DNA of 64,000 nucleotides from Escherichia coli (GCF_051903065.1 NZ_CP178438.1), one strand, 5' to 3'; positions 1 to 14,157 are shown, numbered from the stretch's first letter. Made by a program: numbers and translations. The notes: generated from the letters alone by a model not told the origin.

Positions 1-105
1 GTGCTTACGCTTATCCGGCCTACGAATCGTGCTTTAACGGTAGGCCGGATAAGGCGTTCACGCCGCATCCGGCAATTGTGCACCAATGCCGGATGCGCCC
101 CTTAA
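1..105. repeat. REP/BIME-type palindromic repeat cluster
   Basis: Repeated GCCGGATG...CCTTATCCGGCCTAC-type palindromic units typical of E. coli REP elements. Confidence 0.6.
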
Positions 106-112
106 AGGCCAA

Positions 113-1885
113 TCAACTCAACGCCCCCATAATCTTCAACTCCAGCTCATCCGGCACTTCGTTATACGACAGCACATGCAGCCCCGGCGCAAACAATCTT
201 GCATAACGCGCCAGCAAAGGGCGCAGCTGCGGCGGCACCAGCAGCACCGGGTCTTTCCCCGCTGCTTTCATCTGCTCCTTCACCTGCGGCATCGTGCTCT
301 GGAACTGGTTGAGCATGTTCGGGTCGACCGGCACGCTGTCGAGCATCACTTTACCGCCCTGTTGCGCCTGATTCACCACATTGGTGAGCAGATTTTCCAG
401 CTCATTATTCAGCGTATACACCGTCAGCTCCTGCTTGCGAACGAACGGATGGGTAATGCTGCGCCGCAGCGCCAGGCGTACATCGACCGCCAGCAGAATA
501 TGATCTTTAGTCACCGCGCTACTGGCGACCAGCACGGTGGCGATGGTGACGATATCGCGCAGGGAAACGCCTTCGGTCAGTAGTGTGCGGTACACTTTCA
601 GCAACTGGCTGTAATTCAGCGCCGCGCTTAAGTCTTCTGCCAGGCGCGGTGCCATCGACGACAAACGGTTATGCAACTGTGTGATGTCGTCATAGTTAAA
701 CAAATCAGGAATATAGCTGCGTACAATCTTATTCACATGGGTGGCAATCACGCTGGCGCTGTCGATCACCTGATACCCCATATTCAGCGCCTTCGCTTTC
801 TGCGCAGGCTGGATCCAGGTCACCGGCATCCCGTACGCCGGGTCGTTCCCCAGCACGCCGTCAATCTCGCCGTAGGTTTCGCTGGAGGGCAGGGCCATCA
901 GTTTATCCGCCGGAATATCCGCTTCATCAGCCTTAATGCCGTTGATGAAAATAGCGTACTGGCTGGGCTTAAGGCGGAAGTTTTCCCGAATGCGGATCTC
1001 CGGCAGCAGCACGCCGTTGCCGTCGGATATCACCTGTCGCACGCCGCGAATACGCTGGGTGAGCGGGTTGCCCTGGGCTTTGTCCACCAGCGCCACCAGC
1101 TTGTAACCGAGGCTTAAACTGATAGGCTCGATCAGCGGTATCGTTTCCCAACTGACCTGTTGCTCGCTGGTTTCGGTGATGGTGCGGGTCAGCGTTTCGA
1201 GACTTTTCTCCTCCGCCTCCGCTGCCTGCGGGCGTTTGCTCATCCGCCAGCCGGTAAAGCCAAGCAGGGCGCTGAACAGCAAAAACGGCAGATGCGGCAT
1301 TCCCGGCACCACCGCCAGCACAAACATAATCCCGGTGGCGGTGTAGAGCACCGACGGGCTTGCCAGCAGCTGGTGGCGCACGTCATGGGCGATATCGCCG
1401 TTGTCGCTGACGCGGGTGACGATAATCGCCGCCGCGGTGGAGAGCAGCAGGGAAGGGATCTGCGCCACCAGCCCGTCGCCGATGGTCATCAGCACATATT
1501 GCTGGAAGGCAGCATCGGCGCTCAGGTTGTATTTGAAGATCCCGATACAGACACCGCCGATCAGGTTGATCGCCAGAATCATCATCCCGGCGATGGCGTC
1601 CCCGCGCACAAACTTTGATGCCCCGTCCATCGCGCCGTAGAAATCGGCCTCGCTGGCGACATCTTTACGCCGGGTTTGCGCCTGCGCCTGGTTGATCAAC
1701 CCGGCGTTAAGGTCGGCGTCAATCGCCATCTGTTTGCCGGGCATCGCGTCCAGGGTAAAGCGGGCAGAAACCTCGGAAATACGCTCGGCCCCTTTGGTGA
1801 CGACGATAAAGTTGATTGTCAACAGCGTCAGTAAATCCGAGCGTGAAAGCATTATCGCCGCGCTGCACGGGCAGTCGATTTTCAA
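113..1885 (-). pseudogene. lfhA: FlhA-like flagellar export protein, N-terminally truncated (Flag-2 remnant)
   Basis: 590 aa ORF collinear with the FlhA core and C-terminal domain (KGAERISEV, GMPGKQMAIDADLNAG, EADFYGAMDGASKFVRGDAIAG) but lacking the N-terminal TM region. Confidence 0.8.
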
Positions 1886-1946
1886 CGGTGGCGGGTTGTC
1901 GCCGTTAAATAAAATCAGCCCGTCTCATCCGCCAAAACCTGCCACC

Positions 1947-2582
1947 GTGGCGGTGCCGGAAGAGACGGAGAAAAAAGCGCGCGACGTCAACGAGAAAACG
2001 GCGCTGCTGAAGAAGAAATCCGCCACCGAGCTTGGTGAGCTGGCAACCAGTATCAACACCATTGCCCGTGATGCGCATATGGAAGCGAATCTGGAGATGG
2101 AGATTGTCCCGCAGGGATTACGCGTGCTGATTAAAGACGACCAGAATCGCAATATGTTCGAACGCGGCAGCGCGCAGATTATGCCGTTCTTTAAAACGCT
2201 GCTGGTGGAGTTAGCGCCAGTGTTCGACTCGCTCGATAATAAAATTATTATTACCGGGCATACCGATGCGATGGCCTACAAAAACAATATCTACAACAAC
2301 TGGAACCTTTCGGGTGACCGCGCGCTTTCGGCTCGTCGGGTGCTGGAAGAGGCCGGAATGCCGGAAGATAAAGTGATGCAGGTAAGCGCAATGGCGGACC
2401 AGATGCTGCTGGATGCCAAAAATCCGCAAAGCGCGGGCAATCGGCGTATTGAGATTATGGTGCTGACCAAAAGTGCGTCCGATACGCTGTATCAATACTT
2501 TGGTCAGCATGGGGATAAAGTGGTGCAGCCGCTGGTGCAAAAGCTGGATAAGCAGCAGGTGCTTTCGCAGCGAACGCGCTAA
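1947..2582 (+). CDS. mbhA: MotB/LafU-like OmpA-domain protein fragment
   Basis: C-terminal OmpA-like motifs (IIITGHTD, NWNLSGDRALSARRVLE); the long ORF 1692-2582 overlaps lfhA so the start is uncertain. Confidence 0.55.
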   Translation: MAVPEETEKKARDVNEKTALLKKKSATELGELATSINTIARDAHMEANLEMEIVPQGLRVLIKDDQNRNMFERGSAQIMPFFKTLLVELAPVFDSLDNKIIITGHTDAMAYKNNIYNNWNLSGDRALSARRVLEEAGMPEDKVMQVSAMADQMLLDAKNPQSAGNRRIEIMVLTKSASDTLYQYFGQHGDKVVQPLVQKLDKQQVLSQRTR

Positions 2583-2620
2583 ATGCTGAATCTTTACGCA
2601 TTTCTCAAACCCTGAAATCA

Positions 2621-2636
2621 CTGTATACTTTACCAG
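2621..2636 (+). promoter_or_regulatory. LexA (SOS) box upstream of dinB
   Basis: CTGTATACTTTACCAG fits CTGT-N8-ACAG; positioned ~20 nt upstream of the dinB start. Confidence 0.75.
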
Positions 2637-2652
2637 TGTTGAGAGGTGAGCA

Positions 2653-3708
2653 ATGCGTAAAATCATTCATGTGGATATGGACTGCTTTTTCGCCGCAGTG
2701 GAGATGCGCGACAATCCCGCCCTGCGCGATATCCCTATTGCTATTGGCGGCAGCCGCGAACGTCGGGGGGTGATCAGCACCGCCAATTATCCCGCGCGTA
2801 AATTTGGCGTACGCAGCGCTATGCCGACAGGGATGGCGCTCAAATTATGCCCACATCTCACCTTGCTTCCGGGGCGCTTTGACGCCTACAAAGAAGCCTC
2901 AAATCATATCCGTGAAATCTTCTCGCGCTACACCTCTCGCATTGAGCCGTTGTCACTGGATGAGGCTTATCTCGATGTCACCGACAGCGTCCATTGCCAC
3001 GGTTCTGCGACCCTCATCGCCCAGGAAATCCGCCAGACGATTTTCAGCGAGCTGCAACTGACGGCGTCTGCGGGCGTGGCGCCAGTAAAGTTTCTCGCCA
3101 AAATCGCCTCCGACATGAATAAACCCAACGGCCAGTTTGTGATTACGCCGGCAGAAGTTCCGACATTTTTACAAACCTTACCACTGGCAAAAATCCCCGG
3201 CGTCGGCAAAGTCTCGGCGGCAAAACTGGAAGCGATGGGGCTGCGGACCTGCGGTGATGTACAAAAGTGTGATCTGGTGATTCTGCTTAAACGCTTTGGC
3301 AAATTTGGCCGCATTTTGTGGGAGCGTAGTCAGGGGATTGACGAGCGCGACGTTAACAGCGAACGGTTACGAAAATCCGTCGGCGTGGAACGCACGATGG
3401 CGGAAGATATTCATCACTGGTCTGAATGTGAAGCGATTATCGAGCGGCTGTATCCGGAACTTGAACGCCGTCTGGCAAAGGTAAAACCTGATTTACTGAT
3501 TGCTCGCCAGGGAGTGAAATTAAAGTTCGACGATTTTCAGCAAACCACTCAGGAGCACGTCTGGCCGCGGCTGAATAAAGCTGACTTAATCGCCACCGCG
3601 CGTAAAACCTGGGATGAACGCCGCGGCGGGCGAGGTGTGCGACTGGTGGGGCTGCATGTGACGTTGCTTGACCCGCAAATGGAAAGACAACTGGTGCTGG
3701 GATTATGA
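2653..3708 (+). CDS. dinB: DNA polymerase IV
   Basis: 351 aa, N-terminus [22 protein letters not shown] characteristic of Y-family polymerase DinB. Confidence 0.95.
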
Positions 3709-4157
3709 ATAACATACAAATAAGAAACTATCAGCCTGGCGATTTTCAGCAACTATGCGCTATTTTCATTAGAGCGGTTATGATGACCGCCAGTCAGCAT
3801 TATTCACCACAACAAATTGCCGCCTGGGCGCAGATTGACGAATCTCGCTGGAAGGAGAAACTCGCGAAATCACAAGTGCGGGTTGCAGTCATTAATGCAC
3901 AACCGGTTGGTTTTATTTCCCGCATTGAACATTATATCGATATGTTATTTGTTGACCCTGAATACACCCGCCGTGGGGTTGCCAGTGCTTTGTTAAAACC
4001 TTGGATTAAGTCTGAATCCGAACTTACGGTGGACGCCAGCATAACCGCAAAACCCTTTTTTGAACGTTATGGTTTTCAGACAGTTAAGCAGCAGCGCGTT
4101 GAATGCCGGGGAGCGTGGTTTACTAATTTTTCTATGCGATATAAACCGCAACATTAA
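3705..4157 (+). CDS. yafP: GNAT-family acetyltransferase YafP
   Basis: 150 aa, 4-nt overlap with dinB stop; sequence matches YafP; yafN/yafO are absent between dinB and yafP. Confidence 0.85.
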
Positions 4158-4462
4158 ATCCAGCTTGCAAGGAAAATAACGCCCGCTTGGTATGTGCGCG
4201 TTTTCTTATTCCACAAACTGCAAGGAGGTAAATCATGACAAATCCTTTATCAATGACTCTTTGCAGACCTTTCCAGGATTAATTCTTTTTTTCTTGCCCT
4301 GGATTCGTCTGCCATTTCCTGATTTTTATATTTATATACTCTAAATAATTCGAGTTGCAGGAAGGCGACAAGCGAGTGAATCCCCAGGAGCTTACATAAG
4401 TAAGTGACTGGGGTGAACGAACGCAGTCGCAGTTCATGCAACTTGAAGTATGACGAGTATAA

Positions 4463-5011
4463 ATGGAATGGTACATGGGCAAATATATTCGTCCCTTATC
4501 CGATGCGGTATTTACCATCGCATCTGATGACCTGTGGATCGAGAGTTTAGCGATCCAACAATTACACACCACGGCAAATTTACCCAACATGCAGCGCGTA
4601 GTGGGGATGCCAGATTTACACACCCCGGACGCGGCTACCCGATTGGCGCAGCGTTCTTCTCTGTTGGTCGTTTTTACCCGGCAAGACGTCGCGGTAACGG
4701 TGCTGGAAACCGAAGCCGGGCGTTATCCTGACACGCTGCGTTCGTCGGGGCCGGGCGGTCAACATGTCAATAAAACCGACTCGACGGTACGCGCCACGCA
4801 TTTGGCATCCGGTATTAGCGTGAAGGTTCAGTCAGAGCGTAGTCAGCATGCTAACAAGCGGCTGGCACGATTGCTGATTGCCTGGAAGCTGGAGCAACAG
4901 CAACAGGAAAATAGCGCAGTGCTGAAATCGCAGCGGCGAATGTTCCATCACCAGATTGAACGTGGCAACCCGCGACGGACATTCACAGGGATGGCTTTTA
5001 TCGAAGGATAA
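4463..5011 (+). pseudogene. prfH: ykfJ-prfH remnant (RtcB-like fragment fused to release-factor homologue with internal deletion)
   Basis: C-terminal half carries the GGQ release-factor motif ([13 protein letters not shown]) and PrfH tail; the segment between RSS and GPGGQ appears deleted. Confidence 0.7.
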
Positions 5012-5023
5012 TGAAGGATGAAA

Positions 5024-5055
5024 CTGCCGGAAGGCGATTAAACGCCATCCGGCAG
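5024..5055. terminator. bidirectional hairpin terminator between prfH and pepD
   Basis: CTGCCGGAAGGCG...CGCCATCCGGCAG inverted repeat between convergent genes. Confidence 0.55.
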
Positions 5056-5067
5056 CAAATCAAATAA

Positions 5068-6525
5068 TTACTTCGCCGGAATTTCTTTCAGCAGTTCAGT
5101 CAGCAGTGTCCAGTAATGACCTACGCTTTCGATGTGAACTTGCTCATCCGGAGAGTGTGGACCGGTGATTGTTGGCCCGATAGAAACCATGTCCATTTCC
5201 GGATACGGTTTTTTGAACAGACCACATTCCAGGCCCGCGTGGATAATCTGGATGTTCGGCGTCTTGTTGAACAGGCGCTGATAGGTTTCACGTACCAGAT
5301 GCATCACCGGAGAATTAGCGTCCGGCTGCCAGCCAGGATATGCGCCTTTTGCTTCGGTTTTCGCGCCAGCCAGTTTACCCAGCGAATCCAGCATGCTCAC
5401 CACGTAGTCTTTACCGCTGTCGATCAGAGAACGGATCAGGCAGTGAATTTCTACGTTATTGTCAGTCATGGTCACCACACCGACGTTCAGGGAGGTTTCG
5501 ACCACACCTTTTGCCACGTCGGAATTGCGGATCACACCGTTCGGGGTGGCGTTCAGCAGACGAATAAAGGTATCGCGAGATTTCGCAATCAGGGCAGCTT
5601 TATCGTTCGCAACAGAGTCCAGCAGCAATGCCAGATTCTTCTCTTTTTCTGCCAGCTCGTTTTTCAGGATCTCCTGATAGGTATTCACCAGAGATTTCAG
5701 TGCGTCGACTTTATCAGCTGCGACAGCAATGGTCGCAAAGGCTTCACGCGGGATGGCGTTACGCAGTGTACCGCCGTTGAAATCGATAAGGCGCAGATCC
5801 AGTTCTTCTGCATGACCCGCCAGGAAGCGCACCAGCAGTTTGTTGGCATTACCGAGGCCAACGTGGATTTCACCGCCGGAGTGACCGCCTTTCAGACCTT
5901 TTAAGGTTAACTTGAAGGTTTCAAAACCAGCTGGAACCGCTTCACGATCTAAATGCAGGTTGGAGGTGAAGTCGATACCCCCCGCGCAACCCATGTAGAT
6001 TTCACCTTCTTCTTCGGAGTCGGTGTTAATCAGAATATCAGCCTGCAACCAGTTGCTCTGTAAGCCAAAAGCACCGTCCATACCGGCTTCTTCGGTCATG
6101 GTCAGCAGCACTTCCAGCGGACCGTGAACCACGTTTTCGTCAGCCAGAACCGCCAGTGCAGAGGCCATACCAATGCCGTTATCCGCACCCAGCGTGGTGC
6201 CGCGCGCTTTAACCCATTCGCCATCAATATAAGGCTGGATAGGATCTTTCGTGAAGTCATGCACGGTGTCGTTATTTTTCTGCGGCACCATATCGAGGTG
6301 GGCCTGCAAGACGACCGGTTTACGATTTTCCATACCTGCTGTAGCAGGTTTACGAATCAGGATATTACCTACCTGATCGCGTTCGACATGGAAACCTTTC
6401 TCTTTTGCCCAACCAACAATGTATTCAGCGAGTTGCTCTTCATGATAGGACGGGTGAGGAATAGAACAGATTTTGGCAAAAATATCCCACAGCGGCTGTG
6501 GAGATAATTGAGACAGTTCAGACAC
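5068..6525 (-). CDS. pepD: aminoacyl-histidine dipeptidase (cytosol nonspecific dipeptidase)
   Basis: 485 aa, M20-family motifs, N-terminus MSELSQLSPQPLWDIFAKICSIPHPSYHEE. Confidence 0.95.
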   Translation of the reverse strand: MSELSQLSPQPLWDIFAKICSIPHPSYHEEQLAEYIVGWAKEKGFHVERDQVGNILIRKPATAGMENRKPVVLQAHLDMVPQKNNDTVHDFTKDPIQPYIDGEWVKARGTTLGADNGIGMASALAVLADENVVHGPLEVLLTMTEEAGMDGAFGLQSNWLQADILINTDSEEEGEIYMGCAGGIDFTSNLHLDREAVPAGFETFKLTLKGLKGGHSGGEIHVGLGNANKLLVRFLAGHAEELDLRLIDFNGGTLRNAIPREAFATIAVAADKVDALKSLVNTYQEILKNELAEKEKNLALLLDSVANDKAALIAKSRDTFIRLLNATPNGVIRNSDVAKGVVETSLNVGVVTMTDNNVEIHCLIRSLIDSGKDYVVSMLDSLGKLAGAKTEAKGAYPGWQPDANSPVMHLVRETYQRLFNKTPNIQIIHAGLECGLFKKPYPEMDMVSIGPTITGPHSPDEQVHIESVGHYWTLLTELLKEIPAK

Positions 6526-6785
6526 GTTAAGTCTCCTTGTCGATCACCCGCAAAACAGTATTGCAGGTCACAGGGTTAGCAGAAAATGTTGTCAACACAA
6601 GACAGGCTTGCGAGATATGTTTGAGAATACCACTTTATCCCGCGTCAGGGAGAGGCAGTGCGTAAAAAGACGCGGACTCATGTGAAATACTGGTTTTTAG
6701 TGCGCCAGATCTCTATAATCTCGCGCAACCTATTTTCCCCTCGAACACTTTTTAAGCCGTAGATAAACAGGCTGGGACACTTCAC

Positions 6786-7244
6786 ATGAGCGAAAAATAC
6801 ATCGTCACCTGGGACATGTTGCAGATCCATGCACGTAAACTCGCAAGCCGACTGATGCCTTCTGAACAATGGAAAGGCATTATTGCCGTAAGCCGTGGCG
6901 GTCTGGTACCGGGTGCGTTACTGGCGCGTGAACTGGGTATTCGTCATGTCGATACCGTTTGTATTTCCAGCTACGATCACGACAACCAGCGCGAGCTTAA
7001 AGTGCTGAAACGCGCAGAAGGCGATGGCGAAGGCTTCATCGTTATTGATGACCTGGTGGATACCGGTGGTACTGCGGTTGCGATTCGTGAAATGTATCCA
7101 AAAGCGCACTTTGTCACCATCTTTGCAAAACCGGCTGGTCGTCCGCTGGTTGATGATTATGTTGTTGATATCCCGCAAGATACCTGGATCGAACAGCCGT
7201 GGGATATGGGCGTCGTATTCGTCCCGCCAATCTCCGGTCGCTAA
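6786..7244 (+). CDS. gpt: xanthine-guanine phosphoribosyltransferase
   Basis: 152 aa, [27 protein letters not shown]-binding [11 protein letters not shown]. Confidence 0.95.
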
Positions 7245-7335
7245 TCTTTTCAACGCCTGGCACTGCCGGGCGTTGTTCTTTTTAACTTCAGGCGGGTTAC
7301 AATAGTTTCCAGTAAGTATTCTGGAGGCTGCATCC

Positions 7336-8580
7336 ATGACACAGGCAAACCTGAGCGAAACCCTGTTCAAACCCCGCTTTAAACATCCTGAAACCTCGAC
7401 GCTAGTCCGCCGCTTTAATCACGGCGCACAACCGCCTGTGCAGTCGGCCCTTGATGGTAAAACCATCCCTCACTGGTATCGCATGATTAACCGTCTGATG
7501 TGGATCTGGCGCGGCATTGACCCACGCGAAATCCTCGACGTCCAGGCACGTATTGTGATGAGCGATGCCGAACGTACCGACGATGATTTATACGATACGG
7601 TGATTGGCTACCGTGGCGGCAACTGGATTTATGAGTGGGCCACCCAGGCGATGGTGTGGCAACAAAAAGCCTGTGCGGAAGAAGATCCGCAACTCAGTGG
7701 TCGTCACTGGCTGCATGCGGCTACGTTGTACAACATTGCCGCCTATCCTCATCTGAAAGGAGATGACCTGGCCGAGCAAGCGCAGGCTTTGTCAAACCGC
7801 GCCTATGAAGAGGCCGCTCAGCGTCTGCCGGGCACGATGCGGCAGATGGAGTTTACCGTACCTGGCGGTGCGCCCATCACCGGCTTTTTGCATATGCCGA
7901 AAGGCGATGGCCCGTTCCCGACGGTATTAATGTGTGGTGGTCTGGATGCGATGCAGACGGACTATTACAGCCTGTATGAACGTTATTTTGCGCCGCGCGG
8001 CATTGCGATGCTGACTATTGATATGCCGTCGGTGGGCTTTTCTTCAAAATGGAAGCTCACCCAGGACTCCAGCCTGTTGCATCAGCACGTCTTAAAGGCA
8101 CTGCCTAACGTACCGTGGGTGGATCACACTCGCGTCGCGGCCTTTGGTTTCCGTTTCGGCGCTAACGTTGCCGTGCGTCTGGCATACCTTGAATCACCGC
8201 GTCTGAAAGCGGTTGCCTGTCTTGGTCCGGTAGTTCATACCCTGTTGAGTGATTTTAAGTGCCAGCAACAGGTGCCGGAAATGTATCTTGACGTTCTGGC
8301 CAGTCGTTTGGGGATGCATGATGCTTCCGACGAAGCGTTGCGCGTGGAGCTGAATCGCTATTCATTAAAAGTGCAAGGATTGCTGGGACGTCGCTGCCCA
8401 ACGCCAATGTTATCAGGCTACTGGAAGAACGATCCGTTCAGCCCGGAAGAGGACTCACGCTTAATCACCTCATCATCTGCTGACGGTAAATTATTAGAGA
8501 TCCCATTTAACCCGGTGTATCGGAATTTTGACAAAGGTCTTCAGGAAATCACAGAATGGATCGAAAAACGTTTGTGTTAA
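7336..8580 (+). CDS. frsA: esterase FrsA (fermentation/respiration switch protein)
   Basis: 414 aa alpha/beta hydrolase, matches FrsA length and gene order after gpt. Confidence 0.9.
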
Positions 8581-9039
<459 letters not shown>

Positions 9040-9077
9040 GTGAAATGTGCCGGATGCATCACATCCGGCAATAATCA

Positions 9078-10133
9078 TTAAAACTGATAGGTCATGCCAA
9101 CCGCGACAATATCATCATTATTAATATTCAATTTGTTATCGCTATCCAGTTGGTTGATTTTATAATCAACAAACGCTGACATATTTTTGTTGAAATAATA
9201 TGTAGCCCCGACATCGATATAATTGACCAGATCTTCATCACCGATACCTTCAATATCTTTCCCTTTCGATAAGACATAACCCAGCGATGGACGCAGACCA
9301 AAATCAAACTGGTATTGAGCGACCGCTTCAAAGTTCTGTGTCTTATTGGCAAAGCCGCCAGTTATTGGCGTCATTTTGCGTGTTTCAGAATAAAAAGTTG
9401 CCAGATAAATATTATTGGCATCGTATTTCAGACCTGTAGCCCATGCTTCTGCACGCTTGCCTGTGCCACGGCTTTGCAGGTTCTGCTCGTTGGTGCGATC
9501 TGAGTTGGTATAGGCCCCACTAATGGCGAAATCGCTGCCGCCAAAGTCATATGTCAATGACGTGCCGAAGCCATCGCCGTTTTGCTTTTTAACGTCGCGG
9601 TTTTCGTTTTTCCCTTGATATTGCAGGGTTAAGTTCAGGCCATCGATAACGCCGAAGAAGTCGGTGTTCCGATACGTCGCCAGACCGCTGGCGCGTTTGG
9701 TCATAAAGTTGTCGGTCTGCGCCGAGGAGTCGCCACCAAATTCCGGGAACATATCGGTCCAGGCTTCCACGTCATACAACGCGCCCAGGTTACGACCATA
9801 ATCGAAAGAACCCAAATCTTTATATTTCAACCCGGCAAAAGCGAGACGCGTTTTTTGCTGTGCAGTATCACTCTCCGCTTTATTACCGGCAAACTCCGCT
9901 TCCCAGCGGCCATAACCAGTCAGTTGATCGTTAATTTGTGTTTCGCCTTTAAAACCAAAACGGATATAACTCTGGTCGCCATCTTTACTGTCATTATCAC
10001 TCATATAATGCATGGCTTTAACTTTGCCATAGACATCCAGTTTATTACCGTCTTTGTTATATACTTCTGCGGCCTGTACGGATGCAGATGCCACAATGCC
10101 CATCACCACTAATGCCAGAGTGCTCTTTTTCAT
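9078..10133 (-). CDS. phoE: outer membrane phosphoporin PhoE
   Basis: Porin with signal peptide [21 protein letters not shown] and C-terminal ...VAVGMTYQF; start taken at the second Met. Confidence 0.9.
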
Positions 10134-10420
10134 TTTCATTCCTGATTTTAATTAACGCGCGAATATTCAGCGGGAGAGTCCCGTTGAAAACAGGAAAGTT
10201 TTTAACCTGAGATTGTTAAAGATATATTACGGATTAATAATATTCTTAAAATGTGGTAATTTATTAAATCTGTAATAAAAGCGTAAACAACTGCCGCTAG
10301 GCTTGCTGATCCCGCGCAACAAAACGCCATGCTTTGCTCGCAGATGGTTGGCAACCGACGACAGTCCTGCTAAAACGTTCGTTTGATATCATTTTTCCTA
10401 AAATTGAATGGCAGAGAATC

Positions 10421-11524
10421 ATGAGTGACAGCCAGACGCTGGTGGTAAAACTCGGCACCAGTGTGCTAACAGGCGGATCGCGCCGCCTGAACCGTGCCCA
10501 TATCGTTGAACTTGTTCGCCAGTGCGCGCAGTTACATGCCGCCGGGCATCGGATTGTTATTGTGACGTCGGGCGCGATCGCCGCCGGACGTGAGCACCTG
10601 GGTTACCCGGAACTGCCAGCGACTATCGCCTCGAAACAACTGCTGGCGGCGGTAGGGCAGAGTCGACTGATTCAACTGTGGGAACAGCTGTTTTCGATTT
10701 ATGGCATTCACGTCGGGCAAATGCTGCTGACTCGTGCTGATATGGAAGACCGTGAACGCTTCCTGAACGCCCGCGACACCCTGCGTGCGTTGCTCGATAA
10801 CAATATCGTTCCGGTAATCAATGAGAACGATGCTGTCGCTACGGCAGAGATTAAGGTCGGCGATAACGATAACCTTTCTGCGCTGGCGGCGATTCTGGCG
10901 GGTGCCGATAAACTGTTGCTGCTGACCGATCAAAAAGGTTTGTATACCGCTGACCCGCGCAGCAATCCGCAGGCAGAACTGATTAAAGATGTTTACGGCA
11001 TTGATGACGAACTGCGCGCGATTGCCGGTGACAGCGTTTCAGGCCTCGGAACTGGCGGCATGAGTACCAAATTGCAGGCCGCTGACGTGGCTTGCCGTGC
11101 GGGTATCGACACCATTATTGCCGCGGGCAGCAAGCCGGGCGTTATTGGTGATGTGATGGAAGGCATTTCCGTCGGTACGCTGTTCCATGCCCAGGCGACT
11201 CCGCTTGAAAACCGTAAACGCTGGATTTTCGGTGCGCCGCCGGCGGGTGAAATCACGGTAGATGAAGGGGCAACCGCCGCGATTCTTGAACGTGGCAGCT
11301 CCCTGTTGCCGAAAGGAATTAAAAGCGTGACTGGCAATTTCTCGCGTGGTGAAGTCATCCGCATTTGTAACCTCGAAGGTCGCGATATCGCCCACGGCGT
11401 CAGTCGTTACAACAGCGATGCATTACGCCGTATTGCCGGACACCACTCGCAAGAAATTGATGCAATACTGGGATATGAATATGGCCCGGTTGCCGTTCAC
11501 CGTGATGACATGATTACCCGTTAA
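10421..11524 (+). CDS. proB: glutamate 5-kinase
   Basis: 367 aa from [16 protein letters not shown]; ORF-track start 10334 is an upstream extension. Confidence 0.92.
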
Positions 11525-11535
11525 GGAGCAGGCAA

Positions 11536-12789
11536 ATGCTTGAACAAATGGGCATTGCCGCGAAGCAAGCCTCGTATAAATTAGCGCAACTCTCCAGCCG
11601 CGAAAAAAATCGTGTGCTGGAAAAAATCGCCGATGAACTGGAAGCACAAAGCGAAATCATCCTCAACGCTAACGCCCAGGATGTTGCTGACGCGCGTGCC
11701 AATGGCCTTAGCGAAGCGATGCTTGACCGTCTGGCACTGACGCCCGCACGGCTGAAAGGCATTGCCGACGATGTACGTCAGGTGTGCAACCTCGCCGACC
11801 CGGTGGGGCAGGTAATCGATGGCGGCGTACTGGACAGCGGCCTGCGTCTTGAGCGTCGTCGCGTACCGCTGGGGGTTATTGGCGTGATTTATGAAGCGCG
11901 CCCGAACGTGACGGTTGATGTCGCTTCGCTGTGCCTGAAAACCGGTAATGCGGTGATCCTGCGTGGTGGCAAAGAAACCTGTCGCACTAACGCGGCAACG
12001 GTGGCGGTGATTCAGGACGCCCTGAAATCCTGTGGCTTACCGGCTGGTGCCGTGCAGGCGATTGATAATCCTGACCGTGCGTTGGTCAGTGAAATGCTGC
12101 GTATGGATAAATACATCGACATGCTGATCCCGCGCGGCGGGGCTGGTTTGCATAAACTGTGCCGCGAACAGTCGACGATCCCGGTGATCACAGGTGGTAT
12201 AGGCGTATGCCATATTTACGTTGATGAAAGTGCAGAGATCGCTGAAGCATTAAAAGTGATCGTCAACGCGAAAACTCAGCGTCCGAGCACATGTAATACG
12301 GTAGAAACGTTGCTGGTGAATAAAAACATCGCCGATAGCTTCCTGCCCGCATTAAGCAAACAAATGGCGGAAAGCGGCGTGACATTACACGCAGATGCAG
12401 CTGCGCTGACACAGTTGCAGGCAGGCCCCGCGAAGGTGGTGGCGGTTAAAGCCGAAGAGTATGACGATGAGTTTCTGTCATTAGATTTGAACGTCAGAAT
12501 CGTCAGCGATCTTGACGATGCCATCGCCCATATTCGTGAACACGGCACACAACACTCCGATGCGATCCTGACCCGCGATATGCGCAACGCCCAGCGTTTT
12601 GTTAACGAAGTGGATTCGTCCGCTGTTTACGTTAACGCCTCTACGCGTTTTACCGACGGCGGCCAGTTTGGACTGGGTGCGGAAGTGGCGGTAAGCACAC
12701 AAAAACTCCACGCGCGTGGCCCAATGGGGCTGGAAGCACTGACCACTTACAAGTGGATCGGCATTGGTGATTACACCATTCGTGCGTAA
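11536..12789 (+). CDS. proA: gamma-glutamyl phosphate reductase
   Basis: 417 aa, [37 protein letters not shown]. Confidence 0.95.
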
Positions 12790-12902
12790 ATAAAATCGGG
12801 TGATGCAAAAGTAGCCATTTGATTCACAAGGCCATTGACGCATCGCCCGGTTAGTTTTAACCTTGTCCACCGTGATTCACGTTCGTGAACATGTCCTTTC
12901 AG

Positions 12903-12979
12903 GGCCGATATAGCTCAGTTGGTAGAGCAGCGCATTCGTAATGCGAAGGTCGTAGGTTCGACTCCTATTATCGGCACCA
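12903..12979 (+). tRNA. thrW: tRNA-Thr (CGU anticodon), prophage attachment site
   Basis: GCCGATATAGCTCAGTTGGTAGAGCAGCGCATTCGTAATGCGAAGG...TCGGCACCA cloverleaf ending in CCA, immediately followed by an integrase gene. Confidence 0.85.
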
Positions 12980-12993
12980 TTTAAATCAATAAG

Positions 12994-14157
12994 TTACACA
13001 TCATTAGTACCTTCCTTATTTTTTGACTGGGACAAATTTGGGACCGATGGGTTCAGGATCGAGTCTATTTGCCGTGCGTGTTCGGTAAGGTGATTAGGTG
13101 CAAGGTGAGCATATCGACGAACCATTTCGATAGACTCCCAGCCTCCCATTTCCTGTAACACTGACAACGGGACTCCGGCTTGAACTAGCCAACTTGCCCA
13201 GGTGTGTCTCAAGTCGTGAAATCTGAAATCATCAATACCAGCCCGTCTCAGCGCCGCTTTCCAGGCTGTGTTTGCGTCATACCGCATCTTCCTTACTGTT
13301 GGCGCTTTCGTTCCGTCTGGTTTGGTACAGCTTTCCTTGTACACAAATACCCAACGGTGATGATTCCCGATTTGTTTTTTCAAAACGCGACATGCAGTAT
13401 CATTCAGCGCAACGCCAATTGCGCGGTTTGATTTACTCTCTTCCGGGTTTATCCATGCCACCCGGCGCTGCATGTCTATTTGTTGCCATTCAAGGTTGAT
13501 GATGTTCGAGCGTCTTAAGCCTGTTGCCAGTGCAAATTCAACAACAGACTTTAATGGCTCCGGACATTCATCAATCAGCCTTTGTGCTTCATGGGGCTCC
13601 AGCCAGCGGATCCGTTTATTCTTTGGTTGAGGCACTTTAATAATTGGTGCCTTATCCAGCATTTTCCATTCACGCTCTGCGGCTCTTAGTAGGGCCTTTA
13701 TAAATGAAAGATGCGTAGCCTTCGTTGCAACGGACGCTGGTTTTGGCGTGTATTCTGGAACAGGTTTCCCTTTTTTTCTGCATGCTTCTGCCCTGAGTCT
13801 CCAGTTTTCCTCATGACGCCGGTTCGTCATTTTCTGCATTGCTGAATAAATTTTTGATTCAGTAATGTCTCTTAGTTGCATTCCTGCGAAATGTTGAAGC
13901 CAGAATCCGATCCGGCTTTTGTCATCGTCCAGTGATTTTTTATGTGCTTTCTCTTCAAGCCACCTGACACACGCTTCCTCGAACGTTATATCAGGTATTT
14001 CACCAAGTTTGCTGACCCGCCATGCTTCAGCCTTTAGCTTGTCATGGAGTTCTGTCGCCTGCCTTTTGTCCTTTGTTCCAAGAGACTGTTTAAATCTTTT
14101 ACCGTTCGGCAATGTGAAACTGGCGTACCATATTTCACCTCTGCGGAAGAGTGACAT
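12994..14157 (-). CDS. int: tyrosine integrase, P22 Int-like
   Basis: 387 aa, [31 protein letters not shown]..., catalytic [15 protein letters not shown]...VRRYAHL; adjacent to thrW. Confidence 0.95.

Follow-up and report, generated by a model that had tools for sequence, protein, structure and literature searches.

Common gene-loss polymorphisms and two narrow prfH/rtcB lesions in the yafL/rayT to pepD interval of an Escherichia coli chromosome

Do gene-loss scars that lie side by side in an Escherichia coli chromosome tell us from which lineage that chromosome descends? The question is raised by a stretch of 64,000 nucleotides of E. coli (GCF_051903065.1, NZ_CP178438.1), hereafter the window, of which positions 113 to 5,011 hold the remnants lfhA' and 'lafU of the Flag-2 lateral-flagellar cluster, a dinB-yafP operon without the yafN-yafO pair (yafNO), and the remnants of the rtcB-prfH operon. 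A sequence-only reading of this interval had located all three states correctly and had taken them for decayed host loci, typical of the K-12 lineage and useful for strain placement. Here we show that they are indeed gene-loss scars in chromosomal host loci, but that the common scars are old, recombining and species-wide, and that only two small lesions in prfH and rtcB mark a narrow lineage. Very likely, this part of the stretch is an ordinary E. coli chromosome segment, the interval from yafL/rayT to pepD, in which three known presence/absence polymorphisms happen to be in the ‘loss’ state. All three main states have already been published.

The closest relative of the stretch is E. coli 23CRST027 (NZ_AP045789.1), recorded as isolated from human faeces in Ecuador: positions 1-14000 of the window align to it with 0 mismatches over 14 kb, the first 8 kb being 100% identical. 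The Prokaryotic Genome Annotation Pipeline (PGAP) gives the gene order in 23CRST027 as a FlhA pseudogene without N-terminus, lafU, dinB, yafP, an RtcB-family pseudogene without C-terminus, a release-factor-like pseudogene without N-terminus, and pepD. Since this annotation agrees on all points, the anatomy given by the sequence-only reading is right. Junctions were resolved against AVS0753 (intact Flag-2 and rtcB-prfH), IAI1 and O104:H4 (intact rtcB-prfH), K-12 MG1655 and O157:H7 Sakai, and these alignments to intact loci, AVS0753 and IAI1 in particular, show that Flag-2 and rtcB-prfH are truncated here and not full-length. Neither the list of open reading frames (ORFs) nor the annotation contains yafN or yafO, an intact lfhA N-terminus, or a full-length rtcB or prfH elsewhere in the interval.

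Set beside each other, the reference strains combine the three polymorphisms incongruently. K-12 and Sakai carry the Flag-2 scar and a 1-kb rtcB-prfH deletion but retain yafNO; IAI1 and O104:H4 carry the Flag-2 scar and lack yafNO, with rtcB-prfH intact; AVS0753 lacks yafNO, with both Flag-2 and rtcB-prfH intact. In the window, the Flag-2 scar occurs without yafNO and alongside the 1-kb rtcB-prfH deletion, to which further lesions are added. The mismatch profiles along the region are mosaic as well. Together, these incongruent combinations and mosaic profiles indicate that the common scars are recombining, species-wide polymorphisms. What speaks for an origin in the K-12 lineage, with the scars as its markers, is that two junctions, that of the Flag-2 scar and that of the 1027-bp rtcB-prfH deletion, agree with K-12 base for base, and that an element resembling the enterobacterial repetitive intergenic consensus (ERIC) is present in both. 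However, K-12 carries yafNO, so that its absence is a non-K-12 state, and it has neither the 189-bp prfH deletion nor the two-nucleotide AC insertion (+AC) in rtcB described below. MG1655 has crl::IS1, where crl is intact here; divergence from K-12 reaches 4.4% in lfhA' and ~2% in dinB, yafP and pepD (2-4.5% across the region; 95.6-98% identity); the same junctions occur in 50-75% of complete E. coli genomes; and the best matches of the stretch are 23CRST027, 23CRST031 and ECNB21-M121, not K-12. A K-12 origin is next to impossible on these grounds.

The Flag-2 scar consists of two gene ends that are divergently oriented and directly abut each other. On the minus strand, 113..1816 holds codons 131-697 and the stop codon of lfhA (fhiA), as aligned to the lfhA of AVS0753. 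The ORF that matches Pfam FHIPEP here (positions 99-656 of 657, E=1e-188) spans 113..1885, and PGAP labels the gene as ‘FlhA, incomplete, missing N-terminus’. Of the intact 2094-bp gene of AVS0753, 1704 nt (568 codons) are kept with no internal stop codon; the first 390 nt (130 codons) and the start codon are gone. The sequence-only reading had lfhA lacking its N-terminal membrane region, which holds for the N-terminus, but of the FlhA-type membrane domain no more than the initial 130 codons are gone, not the whole. The MotB/LafU-like fragment that it saw abutting lfhA is the remnant of lafU (mbhA), encoding a MotB-like stator protein, at 1814..2582 on the plus strand (Pfam OmpA, E=9.5e-15). 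This remnant starts at nt 156 of the intact 924-bp gene and, according to the protein alignment to the intact 307-aa LafU, lacks residues 1-52 and with them the greater part of the transmembrane helix. The ORF annotated here by PGAP (1797..2582, 261 aa) is chimeric, its first five codons being antisense lfhA.

A three-way alignment places the junction at 1814..1816, where GAT is common to both parents (GTTGAT in lfhA, GTGGAT in lafU). The ~38.9 kb that lie between the breakpoints in AVS0753, including one insertion sequence (IS), IS1, are gone from the window. The junction lies at the same nucleotides as in K-12, and the alignment across it is colinear and free of gaps. In 4086 of the 5,426 complete E. 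coli genomes that serve as our frequency sample throughout (75%), a 400-nt probe with the junction at its centre matched over its full length, which agrees with the 76 of 100 E. coli reported to carry the lfhA/lafU scar (PMC6993521). As fhiA/lfhA and mbhA/lafU pseudogenes, this scar is known from K-12, B and most E. coli and Shigella (De Maayer et al. 2020, PMC6993521); the original Flag-2 paper (Ren et al. 2005) is drawn on here as reported in PMC6993521 and PMC3032704. Very likely, the ~39 kb Flag-2 lateral-flagellar cluster was lost when an illegitimate deletion joined lfhA to lafU at the 3-bp (5 of 6) microhomology, and the two gene ends were left without promoter or start.

Downstream of the scar, dinB (2653..3708, plus strand) encodes a full-length DNA polymerase IV of 351 aa (Pfam IMS 1-148 of 148, IMS_HHH and IMS_C) with a ratio of nonsynonymous to synonymous substitution rates (dN/dS) of 0.02-0.05 against the references. 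It is followed on the same strand by yafP (3705..4157), encoding a full-length GNAT N-acetyltransferase of 150 aa (Pfam Acetyltransf_10, E=2.4e-19) whose protein accession, WP_001059871.1, recurs in other strains. Both genes are annotated as intact by PGAP. The dinB promoter contains a CTG-N10-CAG LexA box at 2621..2636 on the plus strand (CTGTATACTTTACCAG), identical to K-12 in the alignment, the putative SOS box of dinB. As the sequence-only reading had noted, dinB overlaps yafP with no yafNO between them. The alignment of the window, AVS0753 and K-12 shows a single ATTATGA (3702..3708, plus strand) that includes the ATGA overlap of the dinB stop and the yafP start (3705-3708), whereas in K-12 two ATTATGA copies flank a 759-bp yafN-yafO module at the same point. 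Since yafNO is absent, dinB and yafP are translationally coupled by this ATGA.

The two-gene dinB-yafP junction was found in 2569/5426 genomes (47%), and a two-gene operon with the ATGA overlap has been described in 40-50% of strains (Gutierrez et al. 2011, PMC3105422). In that survey nearly all group A strains, including K-12, have four genes and all B1 strains two, with four in E. fergusonii, and the authors inferred a four-gene ancestor with repeated deletion between the ATGA copies. On the yafP side (window positions 3709-4330) we find 4 mismatches in 622 positions against the four-gene strain Sakai, and 26 against the two-gene strains IAI1 and O104:H4 (4.6% from B1). With yafP near-identical to Sakai and distant from B1, the two-gene state is hence found on haplotypes that are unrelated. 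The most likely mechanism by which yafN-yafO would have been lost from this SOS-regulated operon is deletion between the flanking ATTATGA copies.

The third scar affects rtcB-prfH, which in AVS0753 and IAI1 is an intact operon of rtcB (1140 bp, about 379 aa) and prfH (615 bp, 204 aa) with an ATGA overlap. In the window, alignments to these two genes identify a 5’ remnant of rtcB2 (ykfJ) at 4475..4681 on the plus strand, labelled by PGAP as ‘RtcB family, missing C-terminus’, that stays in frame for its first 49 codons. It ends at a 1027-bp deletion junction (4676..4683, plus strand) with ACCCG(G/A)CA microhomology. The junction is that of the ykfJ-prfH pair of K-12 and Sakai, removes RtcB residues ~69-379 and PrfH residues 1-32, and occurs in 2687/5426 genomes (50%). 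The shared deletion of ~1000 nt in K-12 and O157:H7 was described by Baranov et al. (2006, PMC1586002). A functional RtcB2-PrfH ribosome rescue and repair module would protect against 16S rRNA cleavage by colicin E3 or CdiA-CT. Its mechanism is known (PMC9304027), and the truncated operon of BW25113 gives no protection against colicin E3, where the intact operon of ATCC 25922 does (PMC9223846). The locus encodes neither a full-length RtcB ligase nor a full-length PrfH with its own start coupled to rtcB, and the 1027-bp deletion would have inactivated the operon as in K-12.

On top of this common deletion lie the lesions that set the stretch apart. The prfH remnant (4682..5011, plus strand) comprises PrfH residues 33-51 and 115-204 in the protein alignment and keeps the GGQ motif (Pfam RF-1 15-102 of 116, E=8e-23). 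The internal deletion that the sequence-only reading had noted is real: relative to intact PrfH, 189 bp are missing in frame (PrfH ~52-114), and of the 12-mer ACGCTGCGTTCG, present in two copies in the intact sequence, a single one remains at 4733..4744 on the plus strand as the junction. Directly 5’ of it, and completely linked, 7 substitutions fall within 17 nt (4711..4727, plus strand), mostly at third codon positions. This patch is found in complete E. coli genomes only together with the 189-bp deletion, the two occurring in 32 of the 5426 (0.6%). In search of a donor, an exact 23-mer and a codon-degenerate 32-mer of the patch were scanned against 100,044 species-representative genomes (one per species), with no match. 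A 10-nt inverted match at 4176-4185, 531 nt upstream, is a weak lead for templated mutation and lies within chance expectation. Furthermore, rtcB carries an extra AC within ACACAC (4618-4623, plus strand), which shifts its frame. This insertion is found in 10 of 28 single-piece carriers of the 189-bp deletion among the matches listed and also in O157:H7 TR01, ~11 genomes (0.2%) in all. Because -1027 and +2 put rtcB back in frame with prfH, a single continuous ORF of 182 aa results (4463..5011, plus strand), in which a 49-aa RtcB N-terminus and a 20-aa out-of-frame linker precede PrfH 33-51 and 115-204. The RtcB-like fragment reported as fused upstream of prfH is this N-terminus. With a one-in-three chance of frame restoration, the long ORF is unremarkable.

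In this lineage the damage very likely went further, by a slipped 189-bp deletion between the 12-bp direct repeats with its linked patch, and by an expansion of the AC repeat. Neither the 189-bp deletion nor the +AC variant was found described in the literature; they are minor further decay of an already dead operon. Among the matches listed, the two rare lesions identify 23CRST027, 23CRST031, ECNB21-M121, 14EC033, CUWW06, PapRG-06-5, XJ34 and XJ6-3 as the closest relatives at this locus. The genome of TR01 (NZ_CP033605.1) has yafNO, and in its extracted locus the 83-nt hybrid segment of the 189-bp deletion occurs twice (5900-6350). TR01 was considered as an intermediate of the deletion and rejected: each copy stands in for Sakai sequence base for base at the same length, and between the copies the sequence is that of Sakai. 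This is the pattern left when a reference-guided consensus is called over a real deletion; this structure, and possibly the yafNO call too, is therefore not to be trusted. The prfH structure of TR01 is probably an assembly artefact in a public ‘complete’ genome.

How well does the picture of old, shuffled loss states withstand scrutiny? Several observations weigh against it. The sequences of the lfhA and lafU remnants are not decayed and at face value do not resemble old pseudogenes; AVS0753, with Flag-2 and rtcB-prfH intact, also lacks yafNO, and the change at that locus may have been a loss or a gain; the 7-substitution patch is not accounted for by simple slippage; and the genome counts rest on BLAST coverage thresholds, by which genomes with an IS at the junctions are miscounted. 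The first of these is the most conspicuous. None of 9 scar-bearing strains has a stop or frameshift over the 568 codons of lfhA', the PGAP label is always ‘incomplete’ and never ‘frameshifted’ or ‘internal stop’, and pairwise dN/dS is low in both remnants (0.01-0.04 in lfhA', 0.01-0.06 in 'lafU) at a synonymous divergence of up to 0.18-0.21, roughly double the value in pepD or dinB. To call these remnants ‘decayed’, as had been done, is therefore an overstatement, for they are truncated but free of stops and frameshifts. Purifying selection on truncated FlhA-like and MotB-like products, or on the chimeric ORFs at the junction, would produce such values. However, the remnants have no native start codon or promoter, the literature that we searched reports no phenotype for them, and in a neighbour-joining tree of the retained 1701 nt of lfhA from the 9 scar-bearing and 7 Flag-2-intact strains, scar and intact alleles interleave. 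Scar alleles lie as close to intact ones as 0.24% (IAI1 vs CFSAN027350), 0.29% (204446 vs W) and 0.82% (2017.03.02CC vs Tig228), while pairs of scar alleles differ by up to 6%. Moreover, the scar allele of 2017.03.02CC is a recombinant, Tig228-like upstream and K-12-like over the last ~200 nt before the junction, which is direct evidence that homologous recombination carries the scar from one background to another. It was thus in functional genes that the synonymous-rich diversity arose, and the intact and deleted pools have it in common. Selection on lfhA' and 'lafU, which the low dN/dS had first suggested, was dropped, as the allele tree and the recombinant allele account for that ratio. From the alleles compared, it is best explained by sharing with Flag-2-intact strains, with no need for a remnant function, and that the remnants are alive and under selection is highly improbable. 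Interleaving and recombinant allele together mean that recombination with Flag-2-positive strains both spreads and renews the Flag-2 scar. Whether it spread from one event is a separate matter. In the nine scar strains, invariance around the junction is confined to positions 1806-1882, and very different flanking haplotypes come to within 9 nt of it on the lfhA side and 67 nt on the lafU side; for the final 438 nt up to the breakpoint, the IAI1 remnant is identical to an intact allele; and lfhA-lafU deletions also occur in Citrobacter (PMC6993521). All of this would fit a deletion hotspot, or site-specific excision, that repeatedly produced the scar at the same two positions. On the other hand, microhomology is limited to GAT (5 of 6 nt) over 39 kb, which offers no obvious hotspot mechanism, the K-12-type segment next to the junction in the recombinant allele demonstrates lateral spread, and conversion from intact donors may reach right up to the end of homology. 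Repeated origin is hence rather improbable, and a single deletion most likely gave rise to the scar, after which intact donors would frequently have converted its flanks as far as homology extends. Taken more broadly, the notion that it is no passive relic, but reflects directed recurrent deletion or selected lfhA', 'lafU or junction-chimera products in three quarters of E. coli, has very little probability.

For the dinB operon the alternative is more serious. If the two-gene state were ancestral, yafNO would have inserted in other lineages, duplicating a 7-bp target, and the locus here would not be ‘decayed’ at all. The perfect 7-bp direct repeat ATTATGA that flanks yafNO in K-12 could be such a target-site duplication, the two-gene operon is present in AVS0753 with its ancestral-looking, intact Flag-2 and rtcB-prfH, and 47% of genomes are in the two-gene state. 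This has to be set against the four-gene operon of E. fergusonii, on which Gutierrez et al. based their four-gene ancestor (PMC3105422), and against the flanks in the window, which are closest to the four-gene Sakai haplotype, so that the state changed recently on this background. In addition, precise loss through a 7-bp repeat requires no donor. An ancestral two-gene operon is therefore unlikely, if less so than the alternatives for Flag-2, and yafNO was probably lost in this lineage rather than never present.

What do these findings mean for the use of such loci in strain placement? Since about half to three quarters of E. coli carry any one of the three states, the Flag-2 scar (75%), the lack of yafNO (47%) and the 1-kb deletion in rtcB-prfH (50%), reading them as ‘typical K-12-lineage scars’ is a shortcut that needs correction, as true as it is that two of the junctions match K-12 exactly. 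Reshuffled by recombination, the common scars say little on lineage and nothing on K-12 ancestry, and as markers they place a strain poorly. No Clermont marker for the phylogroup falls within the interval analysed. The expectation of usefulness does hold for the 189-bp deletion with its patch (32 genomes) and for +AC (~11), which are diagnostic of a lineage and usable as narrow markers. Furthermore, the truncated flagellar genes give the impression of being ‘selected’ through the diversity that they have in common with intact alleles, which calls for caution in dating pseudogenes in recombining species.

Around these loci, further elements of the interval came to light. Between yafP and the rtcB remnant, a 127-nt intergenic repeat of the ERIC or intergenic repeat unit (IRU) type occupies 4330..4456 and is not part of the decay; ERIC elements are imperfect palindromes of about 127 nt with ERIC1R/ERIC2 primer sites, and its ERIC identity is presumed from these primer sequences at window positions 4378-4420, no Rfam family having matched. 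It is full in the window, K-12 and Sakai, has a 55-nt form (without 4353-4424) in IAI1, O104:H4 and TB06052, and is absent in AVS0753, and as such is another independently segregating indel in the interval. An Rfam scan of window positions 1-7000 returned no family at the gathering threshold. Upstream, positions 1..112 beyond the lfhA stop hold palindromic repeats of the repetitive extragenic palindromic (REP) or bacterial interspersed mosaic element (BIME) type, read from the sequence and outside the finding proper, which are presumably REP by their GCCGGATGCGGCG...CCGGCCTAC motif. In 23CRST027, IS1A cuts rayT, which encodes the REP-associated tyrosine transposase, directly upstream of where the window starts (4707-5981 of the extracted locus), and the window opens in the REP cluster that follows; B1 strains and W have the hicAB toxin-antitoxin pair at the rayT position instead. 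Downstream, crl is intact at 8638-9039, unlike in K-12 MG1655. The annotation of 23CRST027 has a tyrosine integrase after thrW, the tRNA-Thr gene downstream of proA (at about 12900 of the window and beyond); much of the remaining window is thus probably taken up by an integrated element.

As regards function, the strain should lack Flag-2 motility (lateral flagella) and the YafO toxin, and should have no RtcB2/PrfH protection against colicin E3-type cleavage of 16S rRNA, whereas LexA-controlled, SOS-inducible Pol IV and YafP should be kept. How, then, does each locus compare with its known counterparts? The Flag-2 scar has the two gene ends, the position between rayT/yafL and dinB and the base-identical junction of the K-12 scar; it differs in its flanking alleles, which diverge by 4.4% in lfhA' and 2.3% in 'lafU, and in structure not at all. 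Like the two-gene operons of CFT073 and the B1 strains (PMC3105422), dinB-yafP shows the ATGA stop/start overlap, has no yafN or yafO and keeps the upstream LexA box, but its yafP allele is of the O157:H7 Sakai type, unlike that of B1. Finally, the rtcB-prfH locus shares its 1027-bp deletion junction with the inactive RtcB2-PrfH system of K-12 and O157:H7, the ykfJ-prfH pair, and departs from it in the 189-bp in-frame deletion, the 7 linked substitutions, and the AC insertion that joins the start of RtcB to the GGQ frame of PrfH.

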